64,000 nt of DNA from Sphingomonas sp. (GTDB lineage Bacteria > Pseudomonadota > Alphaproteobacteria > Sphingomonadales > Sphingomonadaceae). Location of the stretch: positions 117,136 to 181,135 of the forward strand of contig JAFKLY010000009.1 of NCBI GenBank assembly GCA_017304655.1, in the 5' to 3' direction. Below, one piece after another: positions 28,014 to 46,124 of this stretch (positions are counted from its first letter, which is position 1; each line of letters begins with the position of its first letter). The position numbers and the translations under genes were made by a program. The notes under the pieces were generated by a model. The model saw nothing but the letters and a program-made list of their open reading frames with translations. It had not been told where the DNA came from and searched no databases.

Positions 28014-29102
28014 ATGGCCAGCGCTCCCGTCGACCCCCCGGAAGGCTTCGCTCCTCCCAGACGCCCCATCGACGTGCTGATCGTCGACGACTCTGTCGTC
28101 GTGCGACGCATCATGGCCAAAGTGCTGGCGGCAGATAAGCGGTTTACCGTCACCGGCGCGGTCTCCAGCGGGGATCAAGCCATCGAATTCGTCCGCACCC
28201 AGCCTGTCGATCTGGTCCTGCTCGACATGCAGATGCCCGGCCTCGACGGGTTGCAGGTGCTGCCTCATCTGCTCGCATCGGAGCGCAGACCCCAGGTCGT
28301 CCTCCTCTCCGGCGCCTGTCGCGAAGGCAGCGAGATCGCGCTGCAGGCACTCGCCATCGGCGCCAGCGACGTCGTCGCCAAACCCAGCGCCGGCCATTTC
28401 AGTGACCAGTTCGTCGAGCATCTGCTCGATCGTCTGATTCATCTCGTCCCCGCCGCAGAGCGCAGCCGCACGCCCGAGCGCGTTGACCAGGCCAGCGCGC
28501 GACTGCGACCGGCCGGAACGCTGGTTCGCGCGGTCGGCATTGGCGGGTCGACCGGCGGCATCAGTGCCATGATCACGCTGATCACCGGCCTTGAACAGGT
28601 GACCGGCCTCCCGATTTTCATCACCCAGCATCTCCCCGCCAATTTCCAGGCGCTGTTCGCCGAGCAGCTCCGGCGTGCGACGCACCTGCCGGTCGCGATC
28701 GCCGAGGATGGCATGCCCGTGCGACCGGGCACTATCCACGTGGCGCCGGGCAGGGCCCATCTCTCGCTCGGCAAGACGGCGCGCGGGCAAGTCGTGATCC
28801 GCCTTTCCAACGAGCGCTGCCTGCATGGCAGCTTCCCGGCAGTCGACCCGATGTTCATGGCGCTCGCGCGTGTCTATGGGGCCGGCGCCTGTGGCGTCAT
28901 CCTCTCTGGCATGGGGCGCGACGGCCTGGCCGGGGCCCATGCCATCGTGGAAGCAGGGGGCTGGGTCATCGCGCAGGATCACGAGAGCAGCGCCGTCTGG
29001 GGCATGCCGGGGTCGGTCGCCAAGGCCGGCCTCGCCAGTGCCATCCTGCCGCCGGCGTCGATCGCCGGGCTGATCCTCGAGCAGAGGCGGGCTGTGGCAT
29101 GA
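28014..29102 (+). CDS. cheB: protein-glutamate methylesterase CheB
   Basis: REC VLIVDDS..VLLDMQMP plus methylesterase VGIGGSTGG and MGRDG. Confidence 0.9.
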   Translation: MASAPVDPPEGFAPPRRPIDVLIVDDSVVVRRIMAKVLAADKRFTVTGAVSSGDQAIEFVRTQPVDLVLLDMQMPGLDGLQVLPHLLASERRPQVVLLSGACREGSEIALQALAIGASDVVAKPSAGHFSDQFVEHLLDRLIHLVPAAERSRTPERVDQASARLRPAGTLVRAVGIGGSTGGISAMITLITGLEQVTGLPIFITQHLPANFQALFAEQLRRATHLPVAIAEDGMPVRPGTIHVAPGRAHLSLGKTARGQVVIRLSNERCLHGSFPAVDPMFMALARVYGAGACGVILSGMGRDGLAGAHAIVEAGGWVIAQDHESSAVWGMPGSVAKAGLASAILPPASIAGLILEQRRAVA

Positions 29103-29959
29103 TGATGGCGCCGCCTTCCCGCGCGATCCAGCGCCTGGGCGATCTGCTGGCGCACCACACCGGTCAGACCCTGTCCGAAAGTCGCCGCTGGCGTATCGAA
29201 ACATCGCTACGCCCCCTGATGCGCGAGCGGGGCCTCGTGTCGCTCGATGGCCTCGTCGCCGCAATCGAGCGCGATCCCGGCGGCACGCTGATGACCGAGA
29301 CGATCGACGCGATGCTGAATCACGAGAGCTCGTTCTACCGCGATTTTGCCGTGTTCAAGGCCATCGAGCAGACGGCACTTCCACGCCTGCAGGCGCAAGC
29401 CCGAGACAAGACGCTGCGCATCTGGTGCGCGGGCTGTTCGACGGGGCAGGAAGCCTATTCGCTGGCGATGATGCTCAAGCGCATGAAGCCGGCATGGGAT
29501 GGCTGGCGCGTCACCATCGTCGCGACGGACGTTTCCGAGCTCGCCATCGAAAAGGCCCGGCGCGGCCGTTATCCGCAGATGGACATGCAGCGCGGCCTCC
29601 AGATCAACGATCTGCTGCGCTGGTTCCGACCGGCCGGGGACGACTGGCAAATCGCCGACGAAATCCGGGACATGATCAGCTTCCAGACCGACAATATCCT
29701 TGAGCCGCGCAAGGTTTCGGGCGTGTTCGATCTGATCCTGTGCCGCAACATGCTCTTCTACTTTCCCGAGGACATGCGCCGGAAAGCCTGCGACACGCTG
29801 GCTCGTCACGCCCGGCCGGGTACCTATCTGGTGCTGGGCGCCGGCGAGATGCTGGCCGGCGGCAACAGCCCCTTCGCCAATTGCCGGGAATTGAGCTGCA
29901 TCTATGTGGCTGACAAACCGGCCACACTGCCGACCGTCATCGGCCGTCCGGCCCACTGA
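29099..29959 (+). CDS. cheR: chemotaxis protein methyltransferase CheR
   Basis: LRIWCAGCSTGQEAYSLAM, and FDLILCRNMLFYF. Confidence 0.9.
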   Translation: MMMAPPSRAIQRLGDLLAHHTGQTLSESRRWRIETSLRPLMRERGLVSLDGLVAAIERDPGGTLMTETIDAMLNHESSFYRDFAVFKAIEQTALPRLQAQARDKTLRIWCAGCSTGQEAYSLAMMLKRMKPAWDGWRVTIVATDVSELAIEKARRGRYPQMDMQRGLQINDLLRWFRPAGDDWQIADEIRDMISFQTDNILEPRKVSGVFDLILCRNMLFYFPEDMRRKACDTLARHARPGTYLVLGAGEMLAGGNSPFANCRELSCIYVADKPATLPTVIGRPAH

Positions 29960-30039
29960 CGACTCCGCTTCCGCCGCGCTCGCCGATCGGCTAGGGACGA
30001 TGGCGTCACCCGGCACCAGGAAGAGGCCACAGGCACAGC

Positions 30040-30723
30040 ATGATCGAGACGCCGTCACCCAATTTTGATGAGCGCTCGCTGCCGATCTCCGTTCTTGTGC
30101 TGCATTATACCGGCATGCCCGACGCGCCGAGCGCCATCAATTGGCTCGCCAATCCGGAAAGCAAGGTCTCCGCCCATTATGTCGTGACCGAGGATGGCAA
30201 TGTCGTCCGCATGGTCGAGGAAGAGAAGCGCGCATGGCACGCCGGGCGCTCCCGGTGGCGCGGTATCACCGATATCAATTCCGCGAGCATCGGCATCGAG
30301 ATCGTCAATCCCGGCCATGAATGGGGCTATCGCCCGTTCCCGGATGCGCAGATCGACGCGCTGATCCCGCTCGTCCACGACATCATCCAGCGCCGGCGCA
30401 TCACCCGCGGCAATGTGGTGGGACACAGCGACATTGCGCCTGCCCGCAAGCAGGATCCGGGCGAGCTGTTCCCGTGGCACAAGCTCGCCCGCCTGCGCCT
30501 GGCCCTGCCGCGCCCGACCAAGAACCTCATGGACCCGCACTGGACGGACAGCGGCTTCATGCTCGCGCTGGAGCGGTTCGGCTATGACATCAGCGACGCC
30601 CAGGCCGCCGTCGTCGCGTTCCAGCGGCGCTTCCGGCCCGAACTGATCGACGGCGTGATCGACGGTGAGTGCCGCGCCATCCTGCTCGCGCTGCTGCTGC
30701 CCCGCCCGCGCGGAGACGACTGA
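30040..30723 (+). CDS. N-acetylmuramoyl-L-alanine amidase (AmpD-like) with C-terminal peptidoglycan-binding-like domain
   Basis: LVLHYTGM, SAHYVV, AWHAG, SIGIEIVN and VGHSDIAPARKQDPG. Confidence 0.85.
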   Translation: MIETPSPNFDERSLPISVLVLHYTGMPDAPSAINWLANPESKVSAHYVVTEDGNVVRMVEEEKRAWHAGRSRWRGITDINSASIGIEIVNPGHEWGYRPFPDAQIDALIPLVHDIIQRRRITRGNVVGHSDIAPARKQDPGELFPWHKLARLRLALPRPTKNLMDPHWTDSGFMLALERFGYDISDAQAAVVAFQRRFRPELIDGVIDGECRAILLALLLPRPRGDD

Positions 30724-30815
30724 GCCGCGCCGAGCGATACGACATTTTCCCCCTGGCGGTTCGAGCGGTTTCCGCTTCTATCCGCTTGTCGGGATCAACA
30801 GGCGGGAGGCACGTG

Positions 30816-32231
30816 ATGCGGATCAGGAAGCACGCAGCGGTCGCGGCGGCAATCATCACCTTCGCGGGACAGGTTCAGGCGGCCGATGCGCCGCTCCGAC
30901 CGGATCAGGCGGCATTCCGCAGCCTCTACAAGGAGTTGGTGGAGACCGACACCAGCATCACCACCGGCAGTTGCACCGCACTGGCCGACAAGGTGGACGC
31001 CCATCTGCGCGAAGCCGGTTACACCGATGCGGACATCACCCGCTTCGCCGTGCCCGAGCACCCCAAGGAGGGCGGGCTCGTCGTCATCCTGCCCGGTACG
31101 TCGAAAACGCTGAAGCCCATCCTGCTGCTCGGCCATATCGACGTCGTGGTCGCCCGGCGCGAGGACTGGACCCGAGACCCCTATCAGCTCATCGAGGAAA
31201 ACGGCTATTTCTATGGCCGCGGCACGTCCGACATGAAGGCGATGGACGCCATCTGGATCGACATGATGATGCGCTTCAAGCGGGAGGGATACCGCCCGAA
31301 GCGCACGCTGAAGCTGGCACTCACCTGTGGCGAGGAAACCAGCACGGCGTTCAACGGTGCCCAATGGCTGGCGCAGAACAAGCGTGACCTGATCGACGCC
31401 GAATTCGCGCTGAACGAGGGCGGCGGCGGCCGGTCGGACGGGCGCGGCAATGCGGTCGAGATGCGCATCCATGTCGGCGAGAAGGCGGCCGTCAATTATC
31501 GCATCGAAGCGACCAATCCCGGCGGCCACAGCTCGGCGCCGGTGCGCGACAACGCGATCTACGAACTGGCCGACGCGCTGGCGAAAGTCCGTGACTATGA
31601 ATTCCCGCTGATGCTCAACGATACGACCCGCGCCTTCTTCGCCAAGGCTGGCGCGGGCCGGACGGACGCGATGGGCAAGGCGATGGTCGCGATCGTCGCG
31701 AACCCGGCCGACAAGGCCGCCGAAGCGACCCTCAATACCGACAAGAGCTATCACTCCATGTTGCGCACGACTTGCGTGGCGACGCTGCTGGATGGCGGTC
31801 ATGCCAACAACGCGCTGCCGCAGCGCGCCGGCGCGAACATCAATTGCCGCATTTTCCCTGGCATCTCGGCCGAGGCGGTGCGCCGCGCGCTGGAGCAGGC
31901 GATCGCCGACCCGCGCATGACGGTGAAGCTGAGCGACGACCGCGGCCCCCTCGCCAAGGCGCCGCCGCTCACGCCCGCCATCCTGAAACCCGCCGAGCAG
32001 ATGGTCGCGAAATATTATCCTGGCGTCCCGCTGATCCCCGTGATGTCGACCGGCGCGACGGACGGCATCTTCCTGCAAGCCGTCGGCATTCCCTCCTACG
32101 GCCCGCCGGGCCTCTATGGCGATGCGGACGGCAATGGCACGCACGGCCTCAACGAGCGCGCCATCGTCAAGTCCGTCTACACGGGCCGCGATCTGCTGAC
32201 CGACCTGGTGAAGCTCTACGCCTCACGCTAG
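30816..32231 (+). CDS. secreted M20-family metallopeptidase
   Basis: Signal peptide MRIRKHAAVAAAIITFAGQVQA, with LGHIDVV, GRGTSDMKA and CGEE. GGGAGG precedes the ATG at 30816. Confidence 0.85.
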   Translation: MRIRKHAAVAAAIITFAGQVQAADAPLRPDQAAFRSLYKELVETDTSITTGSCTALADKVDAHLREAGYTDADITRFAVPEHPKEGGLVVILPGTSKTLKPILLLGHIDVVVARREDWTRDPYQLIEENGYFYGRGTSDMKAMDAIWIDMMMRFKREGYRPKRTLKLALTCGEETSTAFNGAQWLAQNKRDLIDAEFALNEGGGGRSDGRGNAVEMRIHVGEKAAVNYRIEATNPGGHSSAPVRDNAIYELADALAKVRDYEFPLMLNDTTRAFFAKAGAGRTDAMGKAMVAIVANPADKAAEATLNTDKSYHSMLRTTCVATLLDGGHANNALPQRAGANINCRIFPGISAEAVRRALEQAIADPRMTVKLSDDRGPLAKAPPLTPAILKPAEQMVAKYYPGVPLIPVMSTGATDGIFLQAVGIPSYGPPGLYGDADGNGTHGLNERAIVKSVYTGRDLLTDLVKLYASR

Positions 32232-32402: not shown

Positions 32403-32858
32403 TCATGCAGCATTTGGACGAAACAGGAGCCGGTCGAGCGACCAGTCTCCGCCACCCCTAAAAACAAGCGGCAACAGTAACCCGGCCCAGCTCAGATGCG
32501 TGGCCCAAGCGTCTGGATAGACGAAGATCTCGATGACCGCGGTCATGCCGAGCAGGGCGAGGGCGGCCGGTCTTGTGAACAGGCCGAGCACCAGCAGGAT
32601 CGGGAAGAGATGTTCTGAATAGGTCGCGGCGTGGGCGGCGATCTCCGGCGGCACCAGCGGCAGCGCATATTCGGTGCGGAACAGCTCATAGGTGCCGTCG
32701 GTGATGTGGAGCAGGCCGTCCACCTTGGTGCGGCCGGACTGGAAGAAGACGGCCGCGATGCCGAGCCGCGCAACCAGCAGAAGCAGGGCGTCGGGCACGA
32801 GCGCGGTCAGGCGCTTAACGGCAAGAGCGCCGCGAGAAAGAAGCATGGTCATGGACAT
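32403..32858 (-). CDS. DoxX-family membrane protein (bufferin-locus accessory protein)
   Basis: Four hydrophobic helices and [18 protein letters not shown], typical of DoxX. It lies downstream of the DUF2282-type precursor. ATG at 32858 or 32852, after GAGGA. Confidence 0.8.
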
Positions 32859-32877
32859 ATCCTCGGACTGCCGGTCT

Positions 32878-32900
32878 GCCGGGAGGGCGTGCCTCCCGGC
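32878..32900 (-). promoter_or_regulatory. intercistronic GC-rich stem-loop between precursor gene and DoxX
   Basis: GCCGGGAGG (32878-32886) is perfectly complementary to CCTCCCGGC (32892-32900) around a 5-nt loop. There is no U-tract. Confidence 0.5.
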
Positions 32901-32908
32901 ATCGCGCA

Positions 32909-33184
32909 TCAGGCTTTCGGGGTCAGCGAGCCATTGCCCTTGGAGGTCTTGATGCTCGTGCAGGTGCCGGCCTTGACCAGCTTCCAGGCGTTGCCCTGAT
33001 AATTGACCTTGGACGTTCCCGCGCAGCTGGTGCCCGCGCCGGCCTTGCAGTCATTCTTGCCGGCGAGCGATACGCCATAGCATTTCTCCATCGGCGGCTT
33101 CTCCGCGGCCGGTGCGGAGGTTGCCGTGGCGGCGATAGCGAGCGCGAGCGTGGCGGCGAGGGTGGCATGGGTCTTGGTCATCAT
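32909..33184 (-). CDS. bufA: DUF2282-type 4-Cys secreted RiPP precursor (bufferin BufA1-like)
   Basis: Sec signal [26 protein letters not shown], then core [24 protein letters not shown]...GTCTS (C-x10-C-x7-C-x20-C). AAGGAG lies upstream. Confidence 0.85.
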
Positions 33185-33234
33185 CTGTCTCCTTGAATGG
33201 CTTGCCCGGGCCGATCGCCGGACATGCCGCGGAG

Positions 33235-33260
33235 TTCGCGAGGAAGAAGGCGACGGTTAC
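33235..33260 (-). promoter_or_regulatory. ECF (SigF-type) promoter for the DUF2282 precursor-DoxX operon
   Basis: The minus strand reads GTAACC (33260-33255), a 16-nt spacer and CGAA (33238-33235), about 50 nt upstream of the start codon. Confidence 0.65.
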
Positions 33261-33304
33261 GCCGGGCACCACGCAAATATTTTCGCACTGGCATCGCGCG
33301 GCGT

Positions 33305-33329
33305 GTAACCTTTCCAGCGCGGCGACGAA
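33305..33329 (+). promoter_or_regulatory. ECF (SigF-type) autoregulatory promoter for the sigma/anti-sigma operon
   Basis: GTAACC (33305-33310), a 15-nt spacer and CGAA (33326-33329), 22 nt upstream of the ATG at 33352. Confidence 0.6.
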
Positions 33330-33351
33330 TGCCCCTGTCACAGGAGCATGA

Positions 33352-33888
33352 ATGCGGGCGAACGAGGAGCAGTTGAGAGGCTGGATGGTAGGGGGACTGG
33401 ACGGCATCGCTGCCGACCATGCCTGCCTGCTGCGCGCGCTCGTGCCTATCCTGTCGGCTTTCTATGGCCGCCGCGTGTTCGCGTCGGACGATATCGAGGA
33501 TCTGGTGCAGGAGACGCTCATCGCCGTTCATACCCGCCGTGCGACCTATGACCGCGATCGGGCCTTCACGGCCTGGCTGTTCGCCATCGCGCGCTACAAG
33601 ATGATCGATCATTTCCGCCGCAGCCGCAGCACCGTGCCCATCGAGGAACTGGAAGCGATATTGATGGTCGAAGGCTTCGAGGCCAGCAGCGGCGCGCGGC
33701 TCGATGTCGAGGATCTGCTCGGCACCTTGCCCGACAAGCAGGCGCGGATGATCCGCGCGATGCATCTGGAGGGCGCCAGCGTCGCCGAGGCGGCCGCGGC
33801 GAGCGGCTATGGCGAATCCGATGTGAAAGTGTCGGTACATCGCGGCCTCAAGGCGCTGGCGGCCCGCATCCGGGGGAGCGGGTCATGA
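33352..33888 (+). CDS. sigF: ECF RNA polymerase sigma factor (SigF-like)
   Basis: Region 2 DLVQETLIAVHTRRATYDRDRAFTAWLFAIARYKMIDHFRR and region 4 QARMIRAMHLEGASVAEAAAASGYGESDVKVSVHRGLKAL. The stop overlaps the next gene. Confidence 0.85.
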   Translation: MRANEEQLRGWMVGGLDGIAADHACLLRALVPILSAFYGRRVFASDDIEDLVQETLIAVHTRRATYDRDRAFTAWLFAIARYKMIDHFRRSRSTVPIEELEAILMVEGFEASSGARLDVEDLLGTLPDKQARMIRAMHLEGASVAEAAAASGYGESDVKVSVHRGLKALAARIRGSGS

Positions 33889-34526
33889 ATACCGATCGCC
33901 TCATCGACAGACTCGCTAGCGATGTAAGGCCGGTGCGCCGGAGTGCTGTCAGTCGGCGCCTCGCGCTGGGAATAGTCATCGGCGCTCTCGTCTCTGCTGG
34001 CCTCGTGATCGCCACGCTCGGCGCGCGCCCCGATCTCATGCTCGCCATGCGCGGTTTCGGCTTCTGGATGAAGTGGTCCTACACGCTCTCGCTGTCTGCC
34101 ATCGCGATCTATGCCACGGCGCGGCTCGCGCGGCCCGATCCGGGGCGCCTTCGCGCGCTCTGGCTGATCGCCATTCCGGTGACATTGCTCGCCGGTGTCG
34201 GCGTCCTCGAGCTGATGCACACTCCACCGAGCGAATGGCTCGCCATGTGGCTGGGCCGCAGCTGGAGCAAGTGCCCTTGGCTGGTGTTCGGCCTTGCCAT
34301 GCCGATCTTCATCGGGCTGCTCTGGTCGTTCAGGCGCTTGGCGCCGACCCGTCTGCGCGCGGCCGGTGCAGCTGCAGGTCTGGCCGCGGGCGCCTTCGCA
34401 GCGACCGTCTATTGTCTGCATTGTCCGGAAGTCTCGGCGATCTTCGTGCTGACCTGGTACACCGCAGGCATTCTGCTCGCTGCCAGTCTCGGCGCTCTTG
34501 TCGGGCCGAGACTTTTGCGCTGGTGA
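33885..34526 (+). CDS. nrsF: NrsF-family (DUF1109) six-helix membrane anti-sigma factor
   Basis: N-terminus MNTDRLIDRLASDVRPVRR followed by six hydrophobic helices. ATGA-coupled to the sigma gene. Confidence 0.8.
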   Translation: MNTDRLIDRLASDVRPVRRSAVSRRLALGIVIGALVSAGLVIATLGARPDLMLAMRGFGFWMKWSYTLSLSAIAIYATARLARPDPGRLRALWLIAIPVTLLAGVGVLELMHTPPSEWLAMWLGRSWSKCPWLVFGLAMPIFIGLLWSFRRLAPTRLRAAGAAAGLAAGAFAATVYCLHCPEVSAIFVLTWYTAGILLAASLGALVGPRLLRW

Positions 34527-34527
34527 T

Positions 34528-34553
34528 GTAACCGGCTCGCGGGTCGCTCCGAA
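34528..34553 (+). promoter_or_regulatory. ECF (SigF-type) promoter for the 6-Cys precursor-MNIO-DUF2063 operon
   Basis: GTAACC (34528-34533), a 16-nt spacer and CGAA (34550-34553), 43 nt upstream of the ATG at 34596. It starts 2 nt after the nrsF stop codon. Confidence 0.65.
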
Positions 34554-34595
34554 CTAATGACGCCAACCCGGCACAACCATTTCGGAGTATCCCTC

Positions 34596-34859
34596 ATGAG
34601 CACTTTCCGCACGGGCGTCAGCTTCGCCGCATCCGCCGCCCTCGTCGCGATCAGCGCCGCCGCCGTTCCGACAGCCGCCGTCGCCAAGGGTGCCGCTAAG
34701 ATCCATTGCTACGGCATCAACACCTGCAAGGGCACGTCTGACTGCAAGACCGCCAAGAATGACTGCAAGGGCATGAACGACTGCAAGGGGCAGGGCTTCA
34801 AGGAGGTTTCGGCCAAGCAATGCTCGGCCGCTGGCGGCAGCCTGACCGAAACGAAGTAA
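34596..34859 (+). CDS. bufA: 6-Cys secreted RiPP precursor (bufferin BufA2 / BUF_6/12Cys-like)
   Basis: Signal MSTFRTGVSFAASAALVAISAAAVPTAAVA, then core KIHCYGINTCKGTSDCKTAKNDCKGMNDCKGQG..QC (C-x5-C-x5-C-x6-C-x5-C-x12-C). GGAG lies 8 nt upstream. Track start 34557 lies inside or just after the promoter. Confidence 0.8.
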   Translation: MSTFRTGVSFAASAALVAISAAAVPTAAVAKGAAKIHCYGINTCKGTSDCKTAKNDCKGMNDCKGQGFKEVSAKQCSAAGGSLTETK

Positions 34860-34866
34860 GCGCTCC

Positions 34867-34902
34867 GGCCCGGCGGTTCCCCCTGATCCCATCCGCCGGG
34901 CC
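34867..34902 (+). promoter_or_regulatory. intercistronic GC-rich stem-loop between precursor gene and MNIO gene
   Basis: GGCCCGGCGG (34867-34876) is perfectly complementary to CCGCCGGGCC (34893-34902) around a 16-nt loop. There is no U-tract. Confidence 0.5.
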
Positions 34903-34925
34903 ACCCTCTCGTCGCGAGACCTATC

Positions 34926-35756
34926 ATGATCCCATCCTTTGCCGGCTTCGGCCTTGGCCTGCGCAAGCAGCATTATCCAGACTTCCTGGAGCATCGCATC
35001 GGCGTGGATTTCGTCGAGGTCATCTCCGAGAATTTCATGATCGATGGCGGCCGGCCGAAACGCATCCTGCGCGAGGTGCGCGAGCGCTATCCGGTCGCGC
35101 TGCACGGCGTCTCGATGTCGGTCGGCTCGGCCGATGGCGTGGATCGCGCTTATCTCGCGCGGCTGCGGGCGCTGGTCGACGAGGTCGAACCGCTGTTCGT
35201 GTCCGATCACCTTTGCTGGACGCGGTTCGGCGGATTCAGCTCCCACGACCTGCTGCCGCTGCCCTATACGCAGGAGGCGCTGGACATCGTCTGCGCCAAT
35301 GTTGCGATCGCGCAGGATGCCCTGGGCCGGGCGATGCTGATCGAGAACCCGTCGAGCTACGTCGCTTTCGAGGATGACATGATGACCGAATGGGCCTTTC
35401 TGGACGCCGTCTGTGCCCGGACCAGCTGCGGACTGCTGCTCGACGTCAACAATGTCTTCGTCAGCGCCACCAATCATGGCTTCGATCCGATCGCCTATCT
35501 CGACGGCGTGCCGCATGATCGCGTCCGCCAGATCCATCTCGCCGGCCATTCGCAGCGCGACACGATGCTGATCGACACGCATGACAGCCCGGTCCCGGCC
35601 TCGGTCTGGGATCTTTATGCCCATGCCCTGCCGCGCCTCGGCCCGGTCGCGACGATGATCGAGCGCGACGATGCCATCCCGCCTCTGCACGAACTTCTCG
35701 CCGAACTGGATCAGGCGCGCGCGATCAATGCGCAGACGACGAGGCTGGCAGCATGA
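34926..35756 (+). CDS. bufB: DUF692 / MNIO (multinuclear non-heme iron oxidative) RiPP-modifying enzyme, BufB-like
   Basis: GFGLGLRKQHY, FVEVISENF, LHGVSMSVGS, VSDHLCW, LLPLPYT, LIENPSSYV, LLLDVNNVFVSATNHGFD, and IHLAGH. Confidence 0.9.
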   Translation: MIPSFAGFGLGLRKQHYPDFLEHRIGVDFVEVISENFMIDGGRPKRILREVRERYPVALHGVSMSVGSADGVDRAYLARLRALVDEVEPLFVSDHLCWTRFGGFSSHDLLPLPYTQEALDIVCANVAIAQDALGRAMLIENPSSYVAFEDDMMTEWAFLDAVCARTSCGLLLDVNNVFVSATNHGFDPIAYLDGVPHDRVRQIHLAGHSQRDTMLIDTHDSPVPASVWDLYAHALPRLGPVATMIERDDAIPPLHELLAELDQARAINAQTTRLAA

Positions 35757-36493
35757 GGCTCGCCGAGTTGCAGCGCGATTTTTGCGCTTGTCTGACGGCG
35801 GAAGGGCTGGCCTCGTTCGGCCCGTGGGCACGCACGGGCCTCGCCGTCTATCAGAACAACTACCGCGCGCAGCTTGCCGCTTGCCTGGAGGAAAGTTTCG
35901 AAAAGACCCGGCAATGGATCGGCAGCGAAGCTTTTCACGAAGCAGTGGTCACCCATGTGGAACGAATACCACCAAGCAACTGGACGCTCGACGCCTACCC
36001 ACGAGATTTCCCAGAGACGCTGGCGATGCTCTATCCGATCGATCCGGAGGTCGCCGAACTCGCAAGCCTTGAACTAGCGCTCGCCGAGGCGTTCGTCGGA
36101 CCGGATTCGGCGAAGCTGACCGCCGAGTTGATTGCGAACACGAACTGGGATCATGCGAGACTGATCTTCGCGCCAACCCTCGAAATCCTGACGCTGACGA
36201 CTAATACATTGGCCATCTGGACCGCTCTCGCGGAGGATAGCTTGCCGCCAATGAGCGCCTTGTTGCCGGCAGAAGGCGCGATGATCGTCTGGCGCGACGG
36301 CGAAGTTCCGCGTTTCCGTGCAATCGATGCCGCCGAACTTCGCGGGATCCTGACCATCAAATCCGGCACAACATTTGCCGATCTTTGCGCTGCGATGGTT
36401 GAGCATGCTGGGGAGGCGGAAGGCGTTACACAGGCTGGCGTCTGGCTTGGCGAATGGCTCAAGGACGGCATGCTCGTCGACATCATCGAATAA
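35753..36493 (+). CDS. bufC: DUF2063-type MNIO partner protein, BufC-like
   Basis: ATGA overlap with the MNIO gene. LAVYQNNYRAQLAACLEESFEKTRQWIGSEAFHEAVVTHVERIPP is typical of the DUF2063 N-terminal domain. Confidence 0.8.
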   Translation: MRLAELQRDFCACLTAEGLASFGPWARTGLAVYQNNYRAQLAACLEESFEKTRQWIGSEAFHEAVVTHVERIPPSNWTLDAYPRDFPETLAMLYPIDPEVAELASLELALAEAFVGPDSAKLTAELIANTNWDHARLIFAPTLEILTLTTNTLAIWTALAEDSLPPMSALLPAEGAMIVWRDGEVPRFRAIDAAELRGILTIKSGTTFADLCAAMVEHAGEAEGVTQAGVWLGEWLKDGMLVDIIE

Positions 36494-36502
36494 GGCTTGG
36501 CT

Positions 36503-36568
36503 GATTACGCCAACATAACCGACATTCGACCGCTCGAAACGCCTACCTAAAACCTGCCGTTCATTCAT
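36503..36568 (+). repeat. att-like bipartite direct repeat, copy A
   Basis: Block 1 is GCCAACATAACCGACATTCG (36509-36528). A 23-nt unrelated spacer follows, then block 2 ACCTGCCGTTCATTCAT (36552-36568). It matches copy B 18/20 and 16/17 with identical spacing. Confidence 0.7.
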
Positions 36569-36768
36569 CATGCTGTTGCGGCCTTGCGATCGACCAGCCT
36601 TGGACAAAGCGGGCATGAGCGACGGCTTGGGCGAATGGTCGCTTCATCCGGAAGCCGTCTTTTCATCCAAAGTTTAGCTTTGCCGTCTTGCGACGGGGGC
36701 TGCCAGGATGCGCCGGGGCCAACTGGAACACTGTGGCCATCGCCTTGGCCGGCCGCCCCGGCTGACCT

Positions 36769-37671
36769 TTAACGCCGTAGGCGACGAGCGATGTGCGTAG
36801 ACATGAAATCAACGAAGACGCGTACCTTCGGCAGTGGGTATTGGCTCGCGGGCCATAGAAGGTGAAGTGCCCCGGTTTCCTGCGCCGACCCCTCTAAGAG
36901 TTCGACGAGTCGCCCGTCATCGATGCTCGATCGCGCAGCAAAATCGGGCAAGTGCGCGATGCCCCGCCCCCGAATTGCCAGTTCAAGGAGCGGCTCCATT
37001 ATCGTCGCCGTTATGGTCGCGTTGGGTGACACTGCTTCGCCGTCAGAAATGACAGGCCAAGGTATGAGCCGCCCGGTTTCCGCAAGGCGCTGGCGCAGGC
37101 AGGCATGACTAGCCAAGTCCGACAGGGACTCTGGTCGTCCTGACCGCGCGATGTAATCAGGAGAAGCGACGAAGCTCCACCCGAACTCCCCCAGTTTTCG
37201 ATGTCGCAAGCGGCTGTCAGTCGGTTCGCCCGATCGAATTACCGCGTCGAAGCCCTCGTCTATGACGTCGACGAACCGGTCGTTGATATCGAGATCTAGC
37301 TGGATATCCGGGTAAGCTTCGTTGAACGCGGTGATCGCCGGCAGCAACAGTGTAGGCTCGACAGGAAGGCCGATCTTCAACTGGCCGTGCGGCGCAGCGC
37401 GGGCGTCGGAAACCTCCGCCTGGGCGGCTTCGATCTCGCTGAGGATACGACGGCACCGATCGAGGAACAGCGTCCCTTCCTCCGTGATCGCGATCGATCG
37501 GGTCGAGCGATGGAATAGCTGGACCGATAGCTGCTCTTCGAGCTTCTGGATCGCCTTGCCGATCGCGGAAGGCGTCAGCCCCATCGCTTGGCCCGCGAGC
37601 TTGAAGCTCCGTCTCTCAGCCGCCAGCACAAAGGCCTGGATGGCGGCAATACTCTCCACCTGAATACGCAT
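36769..37671 (-). CDS. LysR-family transcriptional regulator
   Basis: HTH FVLAAERRSFKLAGQAMGLTPSAIGKAIQKLEEQL plus a substrate-binding domain. Confidence 0.9.
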   Translation of the reverse strand: MRIQVESIAAIQAFVLAAERRSFKLAGQAMGLTPSAIGKAIQKLEEQLSVQLFHRSTRSIAITEEGTLFLDRCRRILSEIEAAQAEVSDARAAPHGQLKIGLPVEPTLLLPAITAFNEAYPDIQLDLDINDRFVDVIDEGFDAVIRSGEPTDSRLRHRKLGEFGWSFVASPDYIARSGRPESLSDLASHACLRQRLAETGRLIPWPVISDGEAVSPNATITATIMEPLLELAIRGRGIAHLPDFAARSSIDDGRLVELLEGSAQETGALHLLWPASQYPLPKVRVFVDFMSTHIARRLRR

Positions 37672-37682
37672 GGTAGAGATAT

Positions 37683-37701
37683 ATTCTTTATTGTCCGGAA
37701 T
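37683..37701. promoter_or_regulatory. candidate LysR-type (T-N11-A) binding site in the divergent promoter region
   Basis: ATTC-N11-GAAT inverted repeat (ATTCTTTATTGTCCGGAAT) lies 12 nt upstream of the LysR start and 66 nt upstream of the OYE start. Confidence 0.4.
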
Positions 37702-37766
37702 TATAGCCGTTTTTCATATCATGCGGTCGACCATAAATAGCCAGCGACACGAAACGCGAGGCTCGC

Positions 37767-38915
37767 ATGATGGACGCCCTTTTCAAACCATTCGACCTAT
37801 CTGGCTTGGAGCTGCCTAATCGCATCTTCATGGCCCCGTTGACCCGCTCGCGCGGCCCCGACGACGACGCCACGGATCTCGTTGCCCTCTAATATACGCA
37901 ACGCGCGACCGCTGGCCTGATCGTGTCGGAAGGCTCGCCGATCTCGCATGAAGGCCAAGGATATTTTTACAATCCCGGCATCTTCACCCCTGCACAAATT
38001 GCTGGATGGCGGCGGGTTACAGACTCGGTTCATGCGGTCGGCGGTCGCATGTTTATCCAACTCTGGCATGTCGGACGCATAGCCCACGCCTCGAACCAGC
38101 CTGAGGGCCGCGCCCCAGTCAGCTCGACCGATCGCGCAGCGGAAGGCGCGATGGCGTTTGGCCGCGCCGATGATGGTACAATCGGCTTTGTCCCAGCATC
38201 CCGCCCGCGCGCTCTCGATACCGAAGAAGTAGCGCGCGTCGTAGAAGACTTTGCGACTGCTGCACGCAACGCGATGTCTGCGGGCTTCGATGGTGTCGAA
38301 CTTCACGCGGCGAACGGCTACCTGTTCGACCAATTTCTGAATCCGCATATTAATGATCGGACTGACCGCTACTCGGCCGCGACGATCCAGAGGCGGATGC
38401 GCTTCACCCTTGAGGTCGTCGATGCCGTTAGTGCGGCGATCGGCCCGCATCGGGTGGGCATCCGCCTGACGCCTTACGGGGTCATCGGCTCGGTTCCGAT
38501 GTTCGATGACGCAGAGGAAACCTATGTCGCTCTAGGCAAGGCCCTAGGTGAACGTGGGATCGCCTACTTTCACGTCATGGATCAGACGGGGTTCTTCAAC
38601 ACCCCTGCCGGTCAGAAGCCAACAAGCGAACTTATCAAGGAACTGCTGATCAAGTGGCGCTCGGTCGCGCCGCATACGGCAATCCTGCTGGACGGTGGCA
38701 TGACGAAGGCGCGGGCGAACGAGCTTATCACCAATGGTGTCATCGACCTCGCCGGCTTCGGTCAGCCGTTCATCGCCAATCCCGATCTGGTCGCCCGTCT
38801 GCGCCACGACTGGCCGCTCAATCAGCCCGATCGCGCGACATACTATGAGGGCGGCGCTCATGGCTATGTCGATTACCCCCCGTACCGCCCCGCCGACGAG
38901 CCTGTTGCAGGCTGA
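37767..38915 (+). pseudogene. Old Yellow Enzyme-family NADH:flavin oxidoreductase interrupted by a single in-frame TAA
   Basis: ATG 37767 gives MMDALFKPFDLSGLELPNRIFMAPLTRSRGPDDDATDLVAL, then TAA (37890-37892). The same frame continues YTQRATAGLIVSEGSPIS... to 38915 (track ORF 37923..38915). The family consensus has Tyr at the stop position (ALYYxQRA). Confidence 0.75.
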
Positions 38916-38957
38916 CGCTAGCAACGCACCGCACCCCAAGCGAAGAAGGATAGATCC

Positions 38958-39731
38958 ATGCCCCAATATTCAGAACTGGGGGGCAAAGTTGCTCTCGTAA
39001 CCGGCGCCGGCTCCGGCATCGGCAGGTCGACCGCCATGGCGTTCGCAGGACAAGGCGCGCACGTCGTCGTCTCGGATATCAACCCCGATGCTGGCGAGGA
39101 AACTGTCAAGCTCATTCAGGAGGCTGGCGGCCAAGCGATCTTCGTCAAAACCGATGTAACCAAGGAAGGCGAGGTGCAGGCTGTGGTCGACCAGGCTGTC
39201 TCGACATTCGGGCGGCTCGATATCGCCTTCAACAACGCCGGCCTTACGCAAAACTCGGCCCCGCTCGCCGAGCAATCGTCCGACACTTACGACGAAATTT
39301 TCGACGTCTCCGTGCGCGGCGTGTGGCTTTCAATGCGCGCCGAAATCGCCCAGATGCTCAGGCAAGGGGGCGGCACGATCGTCAACATGGGGTCAATGTC
39401 GGCCGTCGTCGGCATTCCCGGTCTCACGACCTATTCAGGCTCCAAACATGCCGTCTTGGGCCTCACGCGGGGCGCTGCTCTGGACTATGCGAGGCAGGGC
39501 ATTCGCATCAACGCCGTCGGCCCGGGGACGATCGACACGCCTATGATCGACCGTTTCGTGGAGCTTGCGGGATCGGACAGCGTCATGGAGCCAATCCGCG
39601 CTGCGCATCCGATCGGCCGCACCGGCAAGCCCGAAGAAGTCGCCGAAGCGGTGCTGTGGCTGGCCTCCGACGCATCGAGCTTCGTCGTTGGCCAAATCCT
39701 CATGGTGGATGGCGGCTACTCGGTCCAGTAA
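38958..39731 (+). CDS. short-chain dehydrogenase/reductase (SDR)
   Basis: TGAGSGIGRS, NNAG and YSGSKHAV catalytic motif. Confidence 0.9.
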   Translation: MPQYSELGGKVALVTGAGSGIGRSTAMAFAGQGAHVVVSDINPDAGEETVKLIQEAGGQAIFVKTDVTKEGEVQAVVDQAVSTFGRLDIAFNNAGLTQNSAPLAEQSSDTYDEIFDVSVRGVWLSMRAEIAQMLRQGGGTIVNMGSMSAVVGIPGLTTYSGSKHAVLGLTRGAALDYARQGIRINAVGPGTIDTPMIDRFVELAGSDSVMEPIRAAHPIGRTGKPEEVAEAVLWLASDASSFVVGQILMVDGGYSVQ

Positions 39732-39791
39732 CACCACCTCGCCGGCTCGCCTTCGATAGCGTCGCCGGGGAGCCTTCAAGGGAACTCAGTA

Positions 39792-40625
39792 ATGCAGACA
39801 TGGTTCGTCACCGGCGCAAGCCGCGGCTTTGGCCTCGAAATCGCTCGCGCTGCGCTGGCCGCCGGTAACAAGGTCATCGCAACAGCTCGGGAACGCCAGC
39901 ACATAATCGACGCCCTGCAAGGCGATCATGATCGGCTATGCGCGCTGACGCTCGATGTGACGCAGCCCACCTCGGTCGACGCCGCGTTGCGCGAGGCGAT
40001 CGAGCGCTTCGGCAGGATCGACGTGCTGGTGAACAACGCCGGCTACGGTCAGCTCGGGGCTTTTGAGGAAGTGTCCCGCGACCAGCTCGCCCGCCAGTTC
40101 GACACAAATGTGTATGGCGTCTTTGACGTCACGCGCGTCGTTCTGCCGACGATGCGACGCCAGCGATCGGGCCACATCATCACCATTTCCTCCATCGCCG
40201 GGATGAGCGGGGGTGCGGGATCGTCCATCTACTGCGCGAGCAAGCACGCGGTCAGCGGATGGTCCGAAGCTCTGGCGGAGGAGTTGGCGCCGTTTGGGAT
40301 CAAGGTCACTTGCGTCTATCCTGGGCGCTTCCGCACGGACTTCCTCGATCGCAGCTCGGTCCGCTATGGCGACATTCCCATTGCGGACTACGCCGATTTT
40401 TCGGCGGCCCGCATGGAGTCGCTAGACGCCAACAATCACCAGCAGGCCGGCGATCCGCAAAAGTTCGCCCTGGCTATGGTCGATCTGGCCTCGAACGATG
40501 AACCGCCGGTTTGGCTAGCCGGTGGGTCCGAAGGCTACCGCGTATTCATGGCGAAAGCCGACGCGCTGCGCGACAACGCCGAAAGCTGGAAGGACGTATC
40601 TATCTCGCTTGATGTGGAAGACTAA
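39792..40625 (+). CDS. short-chain dehydrogenase/reductase (SDR)
   Basis: TGASRGFGLE, NNAG and YCASKHAV. Confidence 0.9.
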   Translation: MQTWFVTGASRGFGLEIARAALAAGNKVIATARERQHIIDALQGDHDRLCALTLDVTQPTSVDAALREAIERFGRIDVLVNNAGYGQLGAFEEVSRDQLARQFDTNVYGVFDVTRVVLPTMRRQRSGHIITISSIAGMSGGAGSSIYCASKHAVSGWSEALAEELAPFGIKVTCVYPGRFRTDFLDRSSVRYGDIPIADYADFSAARMESLDANNHQQAGDPQKFALAMVDLASNDEPPVWLAGGSEGYRVFMAKADALRDNAESWKDVSISLDVED

Positions 40626-40765
40626 GGTTCGCCGGCGGCGGCCGAGCACGCCGGGAGGCTGCAGCGCCAGCGGCCGCTTTCGTTTGATTCAGACGATCCA
40701 GTCAGAAGATCGAACGCCACAACCTGGGCGGGAGCCGTCGGTCGCTTGCCTCACAACTGGTGGTA

Positions 40766-40831
40766 GACTCCGCCGACATAGCCGACATTCGCGGGTTAAG
40801 AGTCACTAGTTGATACCTGCCGGTCATTCAT
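40766..40831 (+). repeat. att-like bipartite direct repeat, copy B
   Basis: Block 1 is GCCGACATAGCCGACATTCG (40772-40791, an internal tandem 9-mer GCCGACAT). A 23-nt spacer follows, then block 2 ACCTGCCGGTCATTCAT (40815-40831). It lies 43 nt from the recombinase gene stop. Confidence 0.7.
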
Positions 40832-40838
40832 ATGGTAA

Positions 40839-40869
40839 ACCGGCTTCCCGGATATCTCGGGAAGCCGGT
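40839..40869. terminator. strong stem-loop immediately downstream of the recombinase gene
   Basis: ACCGGCTTCCCG (40839-40850) pairs perfectly with CGGGAAGCCGGT (40858-40869) around a 7-nt loop. T-rich flanks occur on both strands (GGTTTCAAATTT / TTTACCATATG). Confidence 0.6.
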
Positions 40870-40873
40870 GGTT

Positions 40874-41506
40874 TCAAATTTCGGTCCGTTCGGATAGCGT
40901 CAAAGCATCATCGACATCTACGCCAAGGTATCTGACGGTATTTTCGATGTTGGTGTGCCCGAGCGGGATTTGCACAGCGCGAAGATTGCCTGTGGCTTTG
41001 TAAATCAGCGCTGCCTTGGTCCGCCGCATTGAGTGCGTACCATATTCCCGTTTGTCGAGGCCGATCGTCGTCACCCATTCGTCGACGAGGCGGGCATATT
41101 GTCGCGTGCTCAAATGACCGAGGTAATCGATCCTGCTTGGAAATACGAAATCGCAGATCGTCCCAGAGCGCCGATCTAGCCAGACTTTCAGGCTCTTGCG
41201 TGCCTCAGACATGATCTCGAATTGTACCGGGCGACCAGTCTTTTGCTGAATGACGGTCGCACGATCACGAAAGGAGCCTGCGCTGATCAGATCGCCTATC
41301 CTCATCTTCACCAGATCGCAGCCACGCAATTTGCTGTCGATCGCAAGATCGAACAAAGCTCGATCGCGCAGGCGCCTGTGTTCGTCGAGATAAAAACGGA
41401 TTGCCCAGATATCACGCGGCTTGAGCGCGCGCTTCGGTCCAACATTCTGTCCTGCATTCCAAGGACGCCGATCATGTATGGCGGGGTCAAGGTCTGAATG
41501 GCCCAT
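40874..41506 (-). CDS. tyrosine-type site-specific recombinase/integrase (short form)
   Basis: Catalytic-domain pattern DSKLRGCDLVKMRIGDL, THSMRRTKAALIY, LGHTNIENTVRYLG (R..HxxR..H..Y). ATG at 41506. Confidence 0.85.
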   Translation of the reverse strand: MGHSDLDPAIHDRRPWNAGQNVGPKRALKPRDIWAIRFYLDEHRRLRDRALFDLAIDSKLRGCDLVKMRIGDLISAGSFRDRATVIQQKTGRPVQFEIMSEARKSLKVWLDRRSGTICDFVFPSRIDYLGHLSTRQYARLVDEWVTTIGLDKREYGTHSMRRTKAALIYKATGNLRAVQIPLGHTNIENTVRYLGVDVDDALTLSERTEI

Positions 41507-41588
41507 GATAGTTCTCCGATGGCCGGAATTGGCCAGCGAGAGTATAGTCCCAATGCCCCGCAACCTTCAGACAAGTGTCGCGCGACAC

Positions 41589-41617
41589 TTGACGATTCTG
41601 CATTGCTTTGGTATATC
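41589..41617 (+). promoter_or_regulatory. candidate sigma-70 promoter of higBA
   Basis: TTGACG (41589-41594), a 17-nt spacer and TATATC (41612-41617). The ATG at 41624 follows only 6 nt later, which would give a near-leaderless mRNA. Confidence 0.4.
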
Positions 41618-41623
41618 CCAAGA

Positions 41624-41914
41624 ATGGAAATCGAGAGCATCAGGCACAAAGGCCTGCGCCGCTTCTTTGAAACGGGCAACGCTAAAGGTTTGATTGGAGA
41701 TGCTGGGCGACTGCGCAAGATGCTTGCATTCGTCGACGCTGCGGAAAACCTTGAAGAACTGTCCGTGCCACCGAACTTCGGACTGCATGAGCTGACAGGT
41801 GATCGGAAGGGAAGCTGGTCGATGACGGTTACGAGAAATTGGCGGATGACCTTCGGGGTGAATGACGAAGGTGCGCTAATCGATATGGATTTGGAGGATT
41901 ATCATGGCGCTTAA
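41624..41914 (+). CDS. higB: HigB-type (RelE/ParE superfamily) toxin
   Basis: MEIESIRHKGLRRFFETG...LHELTGDRKGSWSMTVTRNWRMTF...DLEDYH matches the plasmid-maintenance killer protein pattern. Confidence 0.85.
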   Translation: MEIESIRHKGLRRFFETGNAKGLIGDAGRLRKMLAFVDAAENLEELSVPPNFGLHELTGDRKGSWSMTVTRNWRMTFGVNDEGALIDMDLEDYHGA

Positions 41915-42236
41915 GATGCACCCTTCGCTCGCCGTCCACGTTGGCGACTGGTTGAAGACGGAAATCGTAGAGCCCGCGCAGGTCAGCGTGACGGCTTTGG
42001 CCGAGCATTTTGGCGTATCGAGGCAGGCATTGAGTACGTTGCTGAACGGCAATGCAAACCTGTCTGCCGATATGGCTATTCGGTTTGAGAAGGCTTTCGG
42101 GATCAAAGCCGACACTCTGTTGCGGATGCAGACGGCCTATGAGCTGGCCCAGGCTCGCGCGCATGAGCAGGACATTAAGGTTCAAAAGTTCGCCAGAGCG
42201 GCCCGAAACCTGCCATTTACTAATATTTTCGACTAA
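41904..42236 (+). CDS. higA: HigA-type antitoxin (XRE helix-turn-helix)
   Basis: HPSLAVHVGDWLKTEIVEP..VSVTALAEHFGVSRQALSTLLNGNANLSADMAIRFEKAFG. It overlaps higB by 11 nt. Confidence 0.85.
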   Translation: MALKMHPSLAVHVGDWLKTEIVEPAQVSVTALAEHFGVSRQALSTLLNGNANLSADMAIRFEKAFGIKADTLLRMQTAYELAQARAHEQDIKVQKFARAARNLPFTNIFD

Positions 42237-42257
42237 GCTCTGAATCGCTCTAACATT

Positions 42258-44060: not shown

Positions 44061-44386
44061 GATGGTGCGATGGATTTTCTGGGCTTCACCGTTATGCTCG
44101 TGTCGGAATCAGATCGCATGTCATGCCTCCAGGCATGACGATGATGCTTCGGGGTCTGGGGTTCAACGTCGGCGAGGTGACGTTTCGAGACATATAGACG
44201 CCATGTTCGTCCTGGGCATTCCCAAACTGATTAGAGCGCCCAGGCAGCCCGGTTTACGCCGATCGTCTCATCAAATCGTTCGACAGCGCAGCATCGCCAG
44301 AAGCGAGCCGATCCCGTTCGAACCTCTTGGACCGCAAGCAACCAGCCTGATGCTTTGCTGTGGAGCGGCCTACAATGATGATCCGG

Positions 44387-44707
44387 TTAGTAGTCCACAG
44401 GGGCCTCGTCACCCTCCTGAGACTCCAAGGCAATATTGCCAAGGCTGCTTTCGATCAGCCGGAGGTGCGCCAACACGGTATTTTGGAGTTCGCCGCATGC
44501 CGAGACAATCGCGGTGGCATAATCTCTCTGGGGTGCGGCAAGGTTCGTGTCGAGCTTGAGCAGTTCCGCAAATCCGCAGATGTGGGTCAGTGGCGTCCGC
44601 AGATCATGCGACAAGGTATGAAAATAGGTGTCGAACTGGCAATCCTTGCGCAGCGGGATGTTTTGCCATTGCTTGGCGACGTTATGAATCATGTGCTGAA
44701 ATCCCAC
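44387..44707 (-). CDS. HisKA (DHp) domain-only histidine-kinase fragment
   Basis: H-box FHTLSHDLRTPLTHICGFAELL. The ORF stops after about 106 aa with no HATPase_c domain, and none was recognised in the following 325 nt in any frame. Confidence 0.45.
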   Translation of the reverse strand: MGFQHMIHNVAKQWQNIPLRKDCQFDTYFHTLSHDLRTPLTHICGFAELLKLDTNLAAPQRDYATAIVSACGELQNTVLAHLRLIESSLGNIALESQEGDEAPVDY

Positions 44708-44844
44708 GTTCGCGTGGCAAAGCGACCGCCATTCTGCGTTTTTTTAGCTGATCGGTGCGCAGCGGCATTATGTTGCATGTCACGGGTTCTGCATCGAACG
44801 ATGTCTTTCAGCAGCCAGCGTGGCAACATGGATGGCGCGACGTT

Positions 44845-45843: not shown

Positions 45844-46124
45844 CGCCTGAACTCCCCTCTGCGGCGTAGCGGCGCCACTGATCGGAAAGACAGTAGGCCA
45901 GTAACACTCGATTACCTATTTATTGCGCAGCAGCCTGTCAGGACAGCTCCATGAACGGACGGAGGCTCAAACAGCGATCGTTCGATGAACGGATGGTCGT
46001 CTCAAGTGATTAGCACCCGAAAGCGCATTTACTCGATTGTCCCCGGACGTTGCCACTGCGACGCTTATCTGAACGGAGGGCAGCTTCACCTCACTCGCAC
46101 ATGGCAAGCGGACTTTCAGGACTG

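Follow-up and report, generated by a model that had tools for sequence, protein, structure and literature searches.

The stretch of DNA analysed here (the window, 64,000 nucleotides of Sphingomonas sp. contig JAFKLY010000009.1) contains, at 32403-36493, the genes for two bufferin precursors of different classes together with a single pair of modifying enzymes. We give an even chance to the explanation that this segment is one composite bufferin cluster under sigma-F control, left after loss of bufB1 and bufC1, in which the class-1 precursor BufA1 is matured in trans by the class-2 enzymes BufB2 and BufC2. Bacteria very widely use bufferins, recognised only recently, to defend themselves against copper, and the choice of substrate by their MNIO maturases is an open question because the precursors have no classical leader peptide and it is the core through which they are recognised. 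A stable natural system in which one enzyme pair stands with two precursor classes offers a ready-made test of cross-class substrate tolerance, and overturns nothing.

Two precursors and one enzyme pair

On the minus strand, 32403-33184 consists of two open reading frames (ORFs), bufA1 with four cysteines and then only doxX. A sequence-only reading of the window had already described a four-cysteine precursor and DoxX standing alone on this strand, and both ORFs lie exactly where it placed them, with matches to PF10048 and PF07681. The plus strand carries sigF and nrsF, followed by bufA2, bufB and the DUF2063 gene bufC in the order of a buf2 cluster. The same reading held that the only DUF692/DUF2063 pair of the 64 kb follows the six-cysteine precursor on the plus strand; a six-frame tblastn of the window with the seven proteins agrees, finding no second copy of any of the seven in the 64 kb, MNIO, DUF2063, DoxX and DUF2282 included (other matches have E > 0.1). 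Its description of the canonical arrangement as a single operon is correct for Caulobacter buf1ABCD (PMC11626156), and at this locus no MNIO and DUF2063 genes lie between the class-1 precursor and doxX.

The bufA1 gene (32909-33184, minus strand) encodes a DUF2282-type bufferin-1 precursor of 91 aa (PF10048, E = 6e-24, 84.1 bits against a cut-off of 22.4). Its cysteines occupy core positions 2, 13, 21 and 42 in the contexts CYG, NDCK, TSCAG and GTCT, and the N-terminus reads as MMTK, a hydrophobic Ala/Leu-rich signal-like stretch and TSA followed by PAAEK. On the plus strand, sigF (33352-33888) encodes an extracytoplasmic function (ECF) sigma factor with Sigma70_r2 (PF04542) and r4_2 (PF08281) domains and a score of 172 bits on NF009191 (cut-off 171); it overlaps by 4 nt with nrsF (33885-34526), whose product is an anti-sigma-F membrane protein matching PF06532 over its full length (E = 5e-75). 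The six-cysteine, Cys-Lys type bufferin-2 precursor gene bufA2 (34557-34859, plus strand; NF050166, 104 bits against 60) is followed by bufB (34926-35756, plus strand), a BufB2-type MNIO (DUF692) maturase (PF05114, E = 5e-111; NF050167, 382 bits against 310), and by bufC (35753-36493, plus strand), which overlaps bufB by 4 nt and encodes the DUF2063 partner (PME-type 1/RRE-like; PF09836, E = 4e-17, 62.8 bits against 27.2).

Published work has established buf1 as an operon of four genes, buf2 as one of three, and sigma-F as the regulator of both (PMC11626156, PMC3511200). With buf1ABCD of Caulobacter vibrioides (CCNA_03363-03366) the window shares a four-cysteine BufA1 with a signal peptide (putative in the window), a DoxX-family gene, an adjacent sigF-nrsF pair and a sigma-F motif before the precursor, but it lacks bufB1 and bufC1 between bufA1 and doxX and has a GC-rich hairpin at the junction instead. 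With Caulobacter buf2ABC (CCNA_02999-03001) it shares a six-cysteine BufA2 followed by MNIO and DUF2063, the absence of doxX from this operon, and a sigma-F-type promoter immediately upstream with a very short leader; whereas the Caulobacter buf2 operon lies apart from sigF-nrsF and buf1, that of the window is directly downstream of nrsF and is the sole enzyme-bearing unit. The metal-induced gig operons of Cupriavidus metallidurans and Legionella pneumophila (PMC10304878, PMC5413113) combine the same DUF2282, DUF692, DUF2063 and DoxX families but, unlike the window, have a single precursor and all four genes in one complete operon.

Both bufferin operons of Caulobacter are transcribed under sigma-F, from GTAACC-N16-CGAA promoters mapped by rapid amplification of 5' cDNA ends (5'-RACE; PMC3511200). 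We searched the whole 64 kb for GTAACC-N14-18-CGAA and obtained three exact matches against 0.09 expected, located only before bufA1, sigF and bufA2. The match before bufA1-doxX (33235-33260, minus strand, N16) has its 3' end 50 nt before the ATG, the one before sigF-nrsF (33305-33329, plus strand, N15) lies 22 nt before sigF, and the one before bufA2-bufB-bufC (34528-34553, plus strand, N16) starts 2 nt past the nrsF stop. The two marks of a Caulobacter-type sigma-F/NrsF regulon, an ECF sigma factor paired with a DUF1109/NrsF anti-sigma and motifs before the target operons, are thus both present in the sequence. By this pattern, sigma-F would drive all three promoters in the Sphingomonas host, and the predicted outcome is that bufA1-doxX comes on at the same time as the sole enzyme pair of the window. 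A search for classical sigma-70 promoters and intrinsic terminators gave nothing informative.

Conservation of the split layout and class of the retained enzymes

A BufA1 scan with one genome per bacterial species supplied 80 best-matching loci, each with flanks of at most 10 kb; with Sphingobium xanthum added, 81 loci were annotated by tblastn with the seven proteins of the window. The sample is biased toward BufA1 proteins close to that of the window, which is 94% identical to its best scan match over a partial alignment and 87% over full length, and the split form is the rule within that clade. Exactly the divergent arrangement of the window recurs in 47 of the 81 loci, and in another 10 BufA1-DoxX stands beside BufA2-MNIO-DUF2063 in a different arrangement. 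The comparison of synteny in relatives that had been suggested from sequence alone therefore comes out in favour of a conserved split, kept in 57/81 loci. Among the others, 7 contain BufA1-DoxX but show no MNIO in a flank that is often short, 9 are 'double' loci with a complete BufA1-MNIO-DUF2063-DoxX operon plus BufA2-MNIO-DUF2063, 7 are canonical only, and 1 is a tandem-precursor variant. No BufB1-type MNIO occurs in any of the 57 split loci (57/57) within the available flank of up to 10 kb per side. In the 47 split-divergent loci the sigma-F motif with at most one mismatch precedes bufA1 in 45, sigF in 47 and bufA2 in at least 37, against a background of 3% per comparable stretch.

The split layout is found in Sphingomonas, Sphingobium, Novosphingobium, Rhizorhabdus and Sphingopyxis, and in the gammaproteobacterial Lysobacter, Dyella, Luteibacter and Steroidobacteraceae. 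Isolates with this layout include Sphingobium xanthum (GCA_019737615.1), Sphingomonas lycopersici, Sphingobium olei and Dyella marensis (CP064029). Sphingobium xanthum, the nearest relative with a species name, has an identical seven-gene layout, with 82-93% protein identity in six of the seven genes (93% for BufA1) and 67% for DUF2063. The genes flanking the cluster differ between this species and the window, and the bufferin module therefore moves as a unit. About 5 kb from the module, the S. xanthum locus also has a second divergent sigF/nrsF-like pair (L002, 3334-4505; 40% and 30% identity), which the matching part of the window does not contain. Dyella and Luteibacter have a co-directional version, bufA1-doxX-(secreted alpha/beta hydrolase)-bufA2-MNIO-DUF2063, on one strand; arrays of the Dyella type include the locus of Dyella japonica (L027, 10001-13553) and also L018, L025, L040, L051, L056 and L073. 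These gammaproteobacterial arrays have no adjacent sigF-nrsF and mostly no GTAACC-N16-CGAA, and the cluster is probably regulated differently there.

Precursors and enzymes are also separated in other ways. Sphingomonas silueang (L077) and the loci L083-L086 (CP046252.1, S. mali) have a canonical buf1 operon plus a lone small divergent BufA2-like gene, and in the same genomes a separate nrsF-MNIO-DUF2063 unit lies several kilobases from the BufA2-like gene. Unlinking of precursor and enzyme, with in-trans maturation at a distance, seems common in this family. Within 20 kb, the S. silueang locus also contains 11 sigma-F motifs and three MNIOs.

The retained enzymes belong with the class-2 precursor. 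An alignment of 84 MNIOs from the analysed loci contains 24 positions that split BufA2-linked from BufA1-linked enzymes, and the MNIO of the window has the BufA2-linked residue at 24/24. Compared with BufA2-linked MNIOs from double loci, split-locus MNIOs reach a median identity of 65%; compared with BufA1-linked ones, the median is 44%. In a neighbour-joining tree without support values, 56/57 split-locus MNIOs form one clade, with the Dyella group nested inside, and this clade is sister to the BufA2-linked MNIOs from double loci. The bufC product of the window is 37-59% identical to DUF2063 proteins that follow BufA2-linked MNIOs and 26-31% identical to those of BufA1 operons. By these alignments the retained MNIO is clearly of the BufB2 type, the Cys-Lys class. 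Three positions alone, 81, 91 and 100, separate split-locus enzymes (R, F, R) from the BufA2-linked enzymes of double loci (K, W, G); BufB1-type enzymes commonly have the split-state residue at 81 and 100 (R; R/K), and at position 91, a few residues before the SDH motif, they have A, L or V, neither F nor W. The three positions could reflect a broadened specificity or be a mere mark of the clade. A PDB sequence search returned no solved bufferin or BufB/BufC complex, the best MNIO match being 3BWW.

Proposed maturation of BufA1 and the competing explanations

A profile-profile alignment joins the BufA1 and BufA2 cores at E = 2.6e-4 and 36% identity, with cysteines I, II, III and IV of BufA1 aligned to I, III, IV and VI of BufA2, an alignment on which we regard the two precursors as homologous. 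In Caulobacter Buf1 and Buf2 the outer cysteines form a disulphide and the inner ones are modified (PMC11626156); of the four central cysteines modified in Caulobacter Buf2, two are matched in the alignment by the two BufA1 cysteines that are modified in Buf1. The signal peptide is dispensable and recognition involves the core (PMC11626156). Cys-II of BufA1 lies in NDCK, the same Cys-Lys context as in BufA2. For MNIOs acting on Cys-Lys (BufA2-type) substrates, the Asp after the catalytic Asp has been proposed to contact the Lys (preprint 10.1101/2025.11.18.689057); the MNIO of the window has the motif E246-R247-D248-D249, and D249 is conserved in 55/57 split-locus enzymes against 9/18 BufB1-type enzymes. 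The sequence-only reading had pointed to CYG and (N/S)DCK motifs shared by both cores as a possible common recognition logic: the motifs are real, but they are family-wide and also present in the BufA1 of canonical operons, and so do not signal any special logic.

The loss of the modifying genes bufB1 and bufC1 could suggest that a broken buf1 operon has left bufA1-doxX behind as a decaying remnant without present function, a possibility that the sequence-only reading had also allowed for. BufA1 is instead intact and conserved. Four cysteines at identical spacing are found in 82/82 aligned BufA1 sequences, and the consensus core, including the 17-residue stretch with both cysteines modified in Caulobacter, is the same in split and canonical loci; features peculiar to split loci, such as convergence toward BufA2, were sought in this consensus and none appeared. 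Among split loci the BufA1 core has a median ratio of non-synonymous to synonymous substitution rates (dN/dS) of 0.13 (pairwise Nei-Gojobori, 2066 pairs, median dS 0.87); the corresponding value for canonical or double loci is 0.23. These values indicate strong purifying selection on a protein that appears functional rather than decaying. The ORF and its promoter motif are kept, two bacterial classes share the stable layout although synonymous sites are close to saturated, and no bufB1 or bufC1 fragments are left in the bufA1-doxX spacer, which is at most about 175 nt in all loci. Cysteine conservation, dN/dS and the clean spacer rule out a pseudogene or remnant, and we consider that explanation highly improbable.

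If BufA1 is functional, it might be matured by a second, BufB1/BufC1-type pair encoded beyond the 64 kb, with BufB2/BufC2 serving BufA2 only. Several bufferin clusters per genome are possible, and Legionella pneumophila subsp. fraseri can have as many as seven MNIO genes (PMC12452194); Sphingomonas commonly has BufB1-type MNIOs, both enzyme types occur within 20 kb in the 9 double loci, and class-specific active-site residues have been proposed (preprint 10.1101/2025.11.18.689057). The enzyme search in this genome covers the 64-kb window, which leaves room for a second pair beyond it and counts against maturation in trans by BufB2/BufC2. In the Sphingomonadaceae cases inspected, however, BufB1-type MNIOs always lie inside their own bufA1-bufB1-bufC1-doxX operon; since BufB1 enzymes come with their own precursor, a hidden pair would normally bring a second BufA1 and DoxX. 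Yet 0/64 BufA1-DoxX genomes give a second BufA1 locus among the 80 best matches, though 16 canonical or double loci of similar identity are listed there, and no named species with a close BufB1 homologue has the split layout, most matches being unnamed metagenome proteins. These observations argue mildly against a second pair, which we regard as unlikely. We assign a similarly low probability to the proposal that BufA1 is exported unmodified and forms with DoxX an autonomous, MNIO-independent periplasmic or membrane module, for example a cysteine-thiolate copper-binding or redox protein. BufA1-DoxX does persist as a tight pair, no MNIO is seen within 10 kb of it in L032 and L029, DoxX is dispensable for modification in Caulobacter (PMC11626156), the literature leaves 'not modified' open (PMC12452194), and a CX7C pair of free thiols could plausibly bind Cu(I). 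Published data nevertheless disfavour an unmodified peptide: in Caulobacter, BufA1 fails to protect against copper when BufB1 or BufC1 is missing (PMC11626156), and of 4072 complete genomes that encode DUF2282 just 21 have no MNIO at all (PMC12452194, Table 3). The residues around both target cysteines are, moreover, as invariant in split loci as in canonical operons, and 57 loci keep bufA1 in physical linkage with the enzyme pair, with a shared promoter motif.

Cross-class maturation of BufA1 in trans by the BufB2/BufC2 pair is, in our estimate, the most likely mechanism, with a probability near one half. In-trans service had been offered as one possibility by the sequence-only reading; the layout of 57/81 loci, the sigma-F motifs, the purifying selection and the aligned cysteines favour it, although they do not amount to proof. 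Several points weigh against it besides the scope of the enzyme search. Cys-III of BufA1 precedes Ala (TSCAG), not Lys, and Cys-II also precedes Ala in 12/65 split loci; with Ala after the cysteine, a strict Cys-Lys reader might therefore modify one BufA1 cysteine or none. The equation of D249 with the published BufB2 D251 is by position in the ERDD motif alone, not by alignment to FonB/BufB2. Purifying selection would be equally expected for an unmodified cysteine-based copper-binding protein. Linkage is not obligatory, as 3-7 kb are inserted between nrsF and bufA2 in three loci, and seven BufA1-DoxX loci have no MNIO in the flank, L032 among them with full 10-kb flanks. In L032 neither BufA2 nor MNIO lies within 10 kb on either side, the clearest instance of BufA1-DoxX without a nearby enzyme; the contig, labelled 'Actinobacteria bacterium 21-64-8', has Sphingomonas-like sigF-nrsF/bufA1-doxX at 71-76% identity and is probably mis-binned. 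The BufA1 product might also have a different modification state, for example with Cys-II alone converted. That one BufB2/BufC2 pair naturally matures both the six-cysteine BufA2 and the four-cysteine BufA1, in a composite sigma-F regulon stable across dozens of Sphingomonadales/Xanthomonadales-type species, seems to us an evenly balanced proposition.

The composite cluster would work as three transcription units, bufA1-doxX on the minus strand and sigF-nrsF and bufA2-bufB-bufC on the plus strand, together specifying metallophores of the RiPP type (peptides made on the ribosome and modified after translation) for copper stress. Copper or other metal stress would cause NrsF to let go of sigma-F, which would fire the three promoters, so that both precursors, BufA1 and BufA2, are co-produced with the one MNIO and the DUF2063 protein that partners it. 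BufB2/BufC2 would turn the four central cysteines of BufA2 and, in trans, the two central cysteines of BufA1 into thiooxazoles, and both peptides would leave the cytoplasm through Sec and chelate periplasmic copper. DoxX may act as a BufA1-associated membrane partner dispensable for the modification chemistry; if cross-class maturation is true, it would be a BufA1-specific partner independent of that chemistry. Historically, bufA1-doxX would be the residue of a canonical bufA1-bufB1-bufC1-doxX operon after a clean and ancient loss of bufB1C1, and the simplest course would be that a 'double' ancestor resembling L044 or L075 underwent one old, clean deletion and the result then spread. We infer deletion as the direction of evolution.

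The sequence-only reading had held that cross-class promiscuity would be new, but the general idea is already published: a survey describes 'orphan' bufferin precursors away from any MNIO, proposing modification from another locus or none, and takes tandem precursor genes to suggest more than one substrate per MNIO (PMC12452194). What appears to be new is the specific, conserved cluster of BufA1 with BufB2/BufC2. The orphan and tandem precursors of that survey, for example in Legionella pneumophila subsp. fraseri, resemble the window in having a precursor that does not adjoin an MNIO, but they are covered by a general statement with no defined architecture, whereas the window has a conserved pairing of a class-1 precursor with class-2 enzymes and a shared promoter motif. 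If in-trans service is true, it would explain the many 'orphan' DUF2282 genes of genome surveys. Among the rows listed in the per-genome count table of the survey, Sphingomonadales appear without bufferin genes or with a canonical cluster. Sigma/NrsF genes were reported there in Buf1 and not in Buf2 clusters, which misfits the window, where sigF-nrsF directly precede bufA2; the report likely stems from a rule that lets any precursor no more than five genes from the MNIO decide the type of a cluster. Genome mining by this rule files the layout of the window as an ordinary Buf1 cluster, hiding the Buf2-lineage enzyme and the sigF-nrsF pair before bufA2. Our literature search found no paper on a composite cross-class cluster, nor one testing BufA1 with BufB2/C2; the Caulobacter bufferin deletions were made in a buf2-lacking strain (PMC11626156).

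Start sites, hairpins and neighbouring genes

The doxX gene (32403-32909, minus strand; PF07681, E = 9e-19) has a longest ORF of 168 aa, with a likelier start at 32858 or 32852 giving about 150 aa. The start at 32858 is the JGI gene call on an identical 2-kb metagenome contig (L001), the one other place where the BufA1 of the window occurred in the searches, and a GAGG stands a little upstream; the bufA1-doxX spacer is about 50 nt with the likelier start and 0 nt with the longest ORF. DoxX scores 51.3 bits on the HvfX-family model NF050144 ('Cu-binding RiPP maturation protein'), under the cut-off of 80, and split-locus DoxX proteins are 67-78% identical to those of canonical or double bufferin loci. 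Judged by these matches, the DoxX of the window is a PF07681 protein orthologous to canonical bufD1 and no HvfX equivalog. For bufA2, the ATG at 34557 is unlikely to be the start because the sigma-F motif ends at 34553, only 3 nt before it. The probable true start is 34596 (87 aa), with GGAG 8 nt upstream, and 87 aa is also the length given to the orthologue in the S. xanthum gene call.

Behind each of the two precursor genes stands a GC-rich stem-loop with a 10-bp stem and no U-tract: one in the bufA1-doxX spacer (32877-32901, minus strand; -28.4 kcal/mol, z = -1.8) and one in the bufA2-bufB gap (34867-34902, plus strand; -28.3 kcal/mol, z = -2.5). A hairpin comparable to the first occurs in most of the 57 split loci, where the median longest stem is 10 bp against 5 in a post-nrsF control, and the bufA2-bufB stem reaches at least 7 bp in 96% of them. 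The hairpins recur among these loci as structure and not as sequence, and none follows nrsF; canonical bufA1-bufB1 junctions are only 27-37 nt long with weak structure and lack the hairpin. Its role may be to keep expression of the precursor high relative to that of the downstream gene.

On the doxX side of the cluster, genes for a CheB methylesterase, a CheR methyltransferase and an AmpD-like N-acetylmuramoyl-L-alanine amidase (28014-30723, plus strand) and an M20 peptidase gene convergent on doxX (30669-32231) are unrelated to the bufferin genes. Directly downstream of bufC, the G+C content falls from about 0.65 to 0.575-0.62 (36001-46000) over a segment that holds a LysR regulator, an interrupted Old Yellow Enzyme gene and a short-chain dehydrogenase/reductase and that may have been acquired. 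The interrupted gene, for a PF00724 Old-Yellow-Enzyme-type NADH:flavin oxidoreductase (37767-38915, plus strand), has an in-frame stop at 37890-37892 (...DLVAL*YTQRATAGL...) and is either a pseudogene or the product of a sequencing error.

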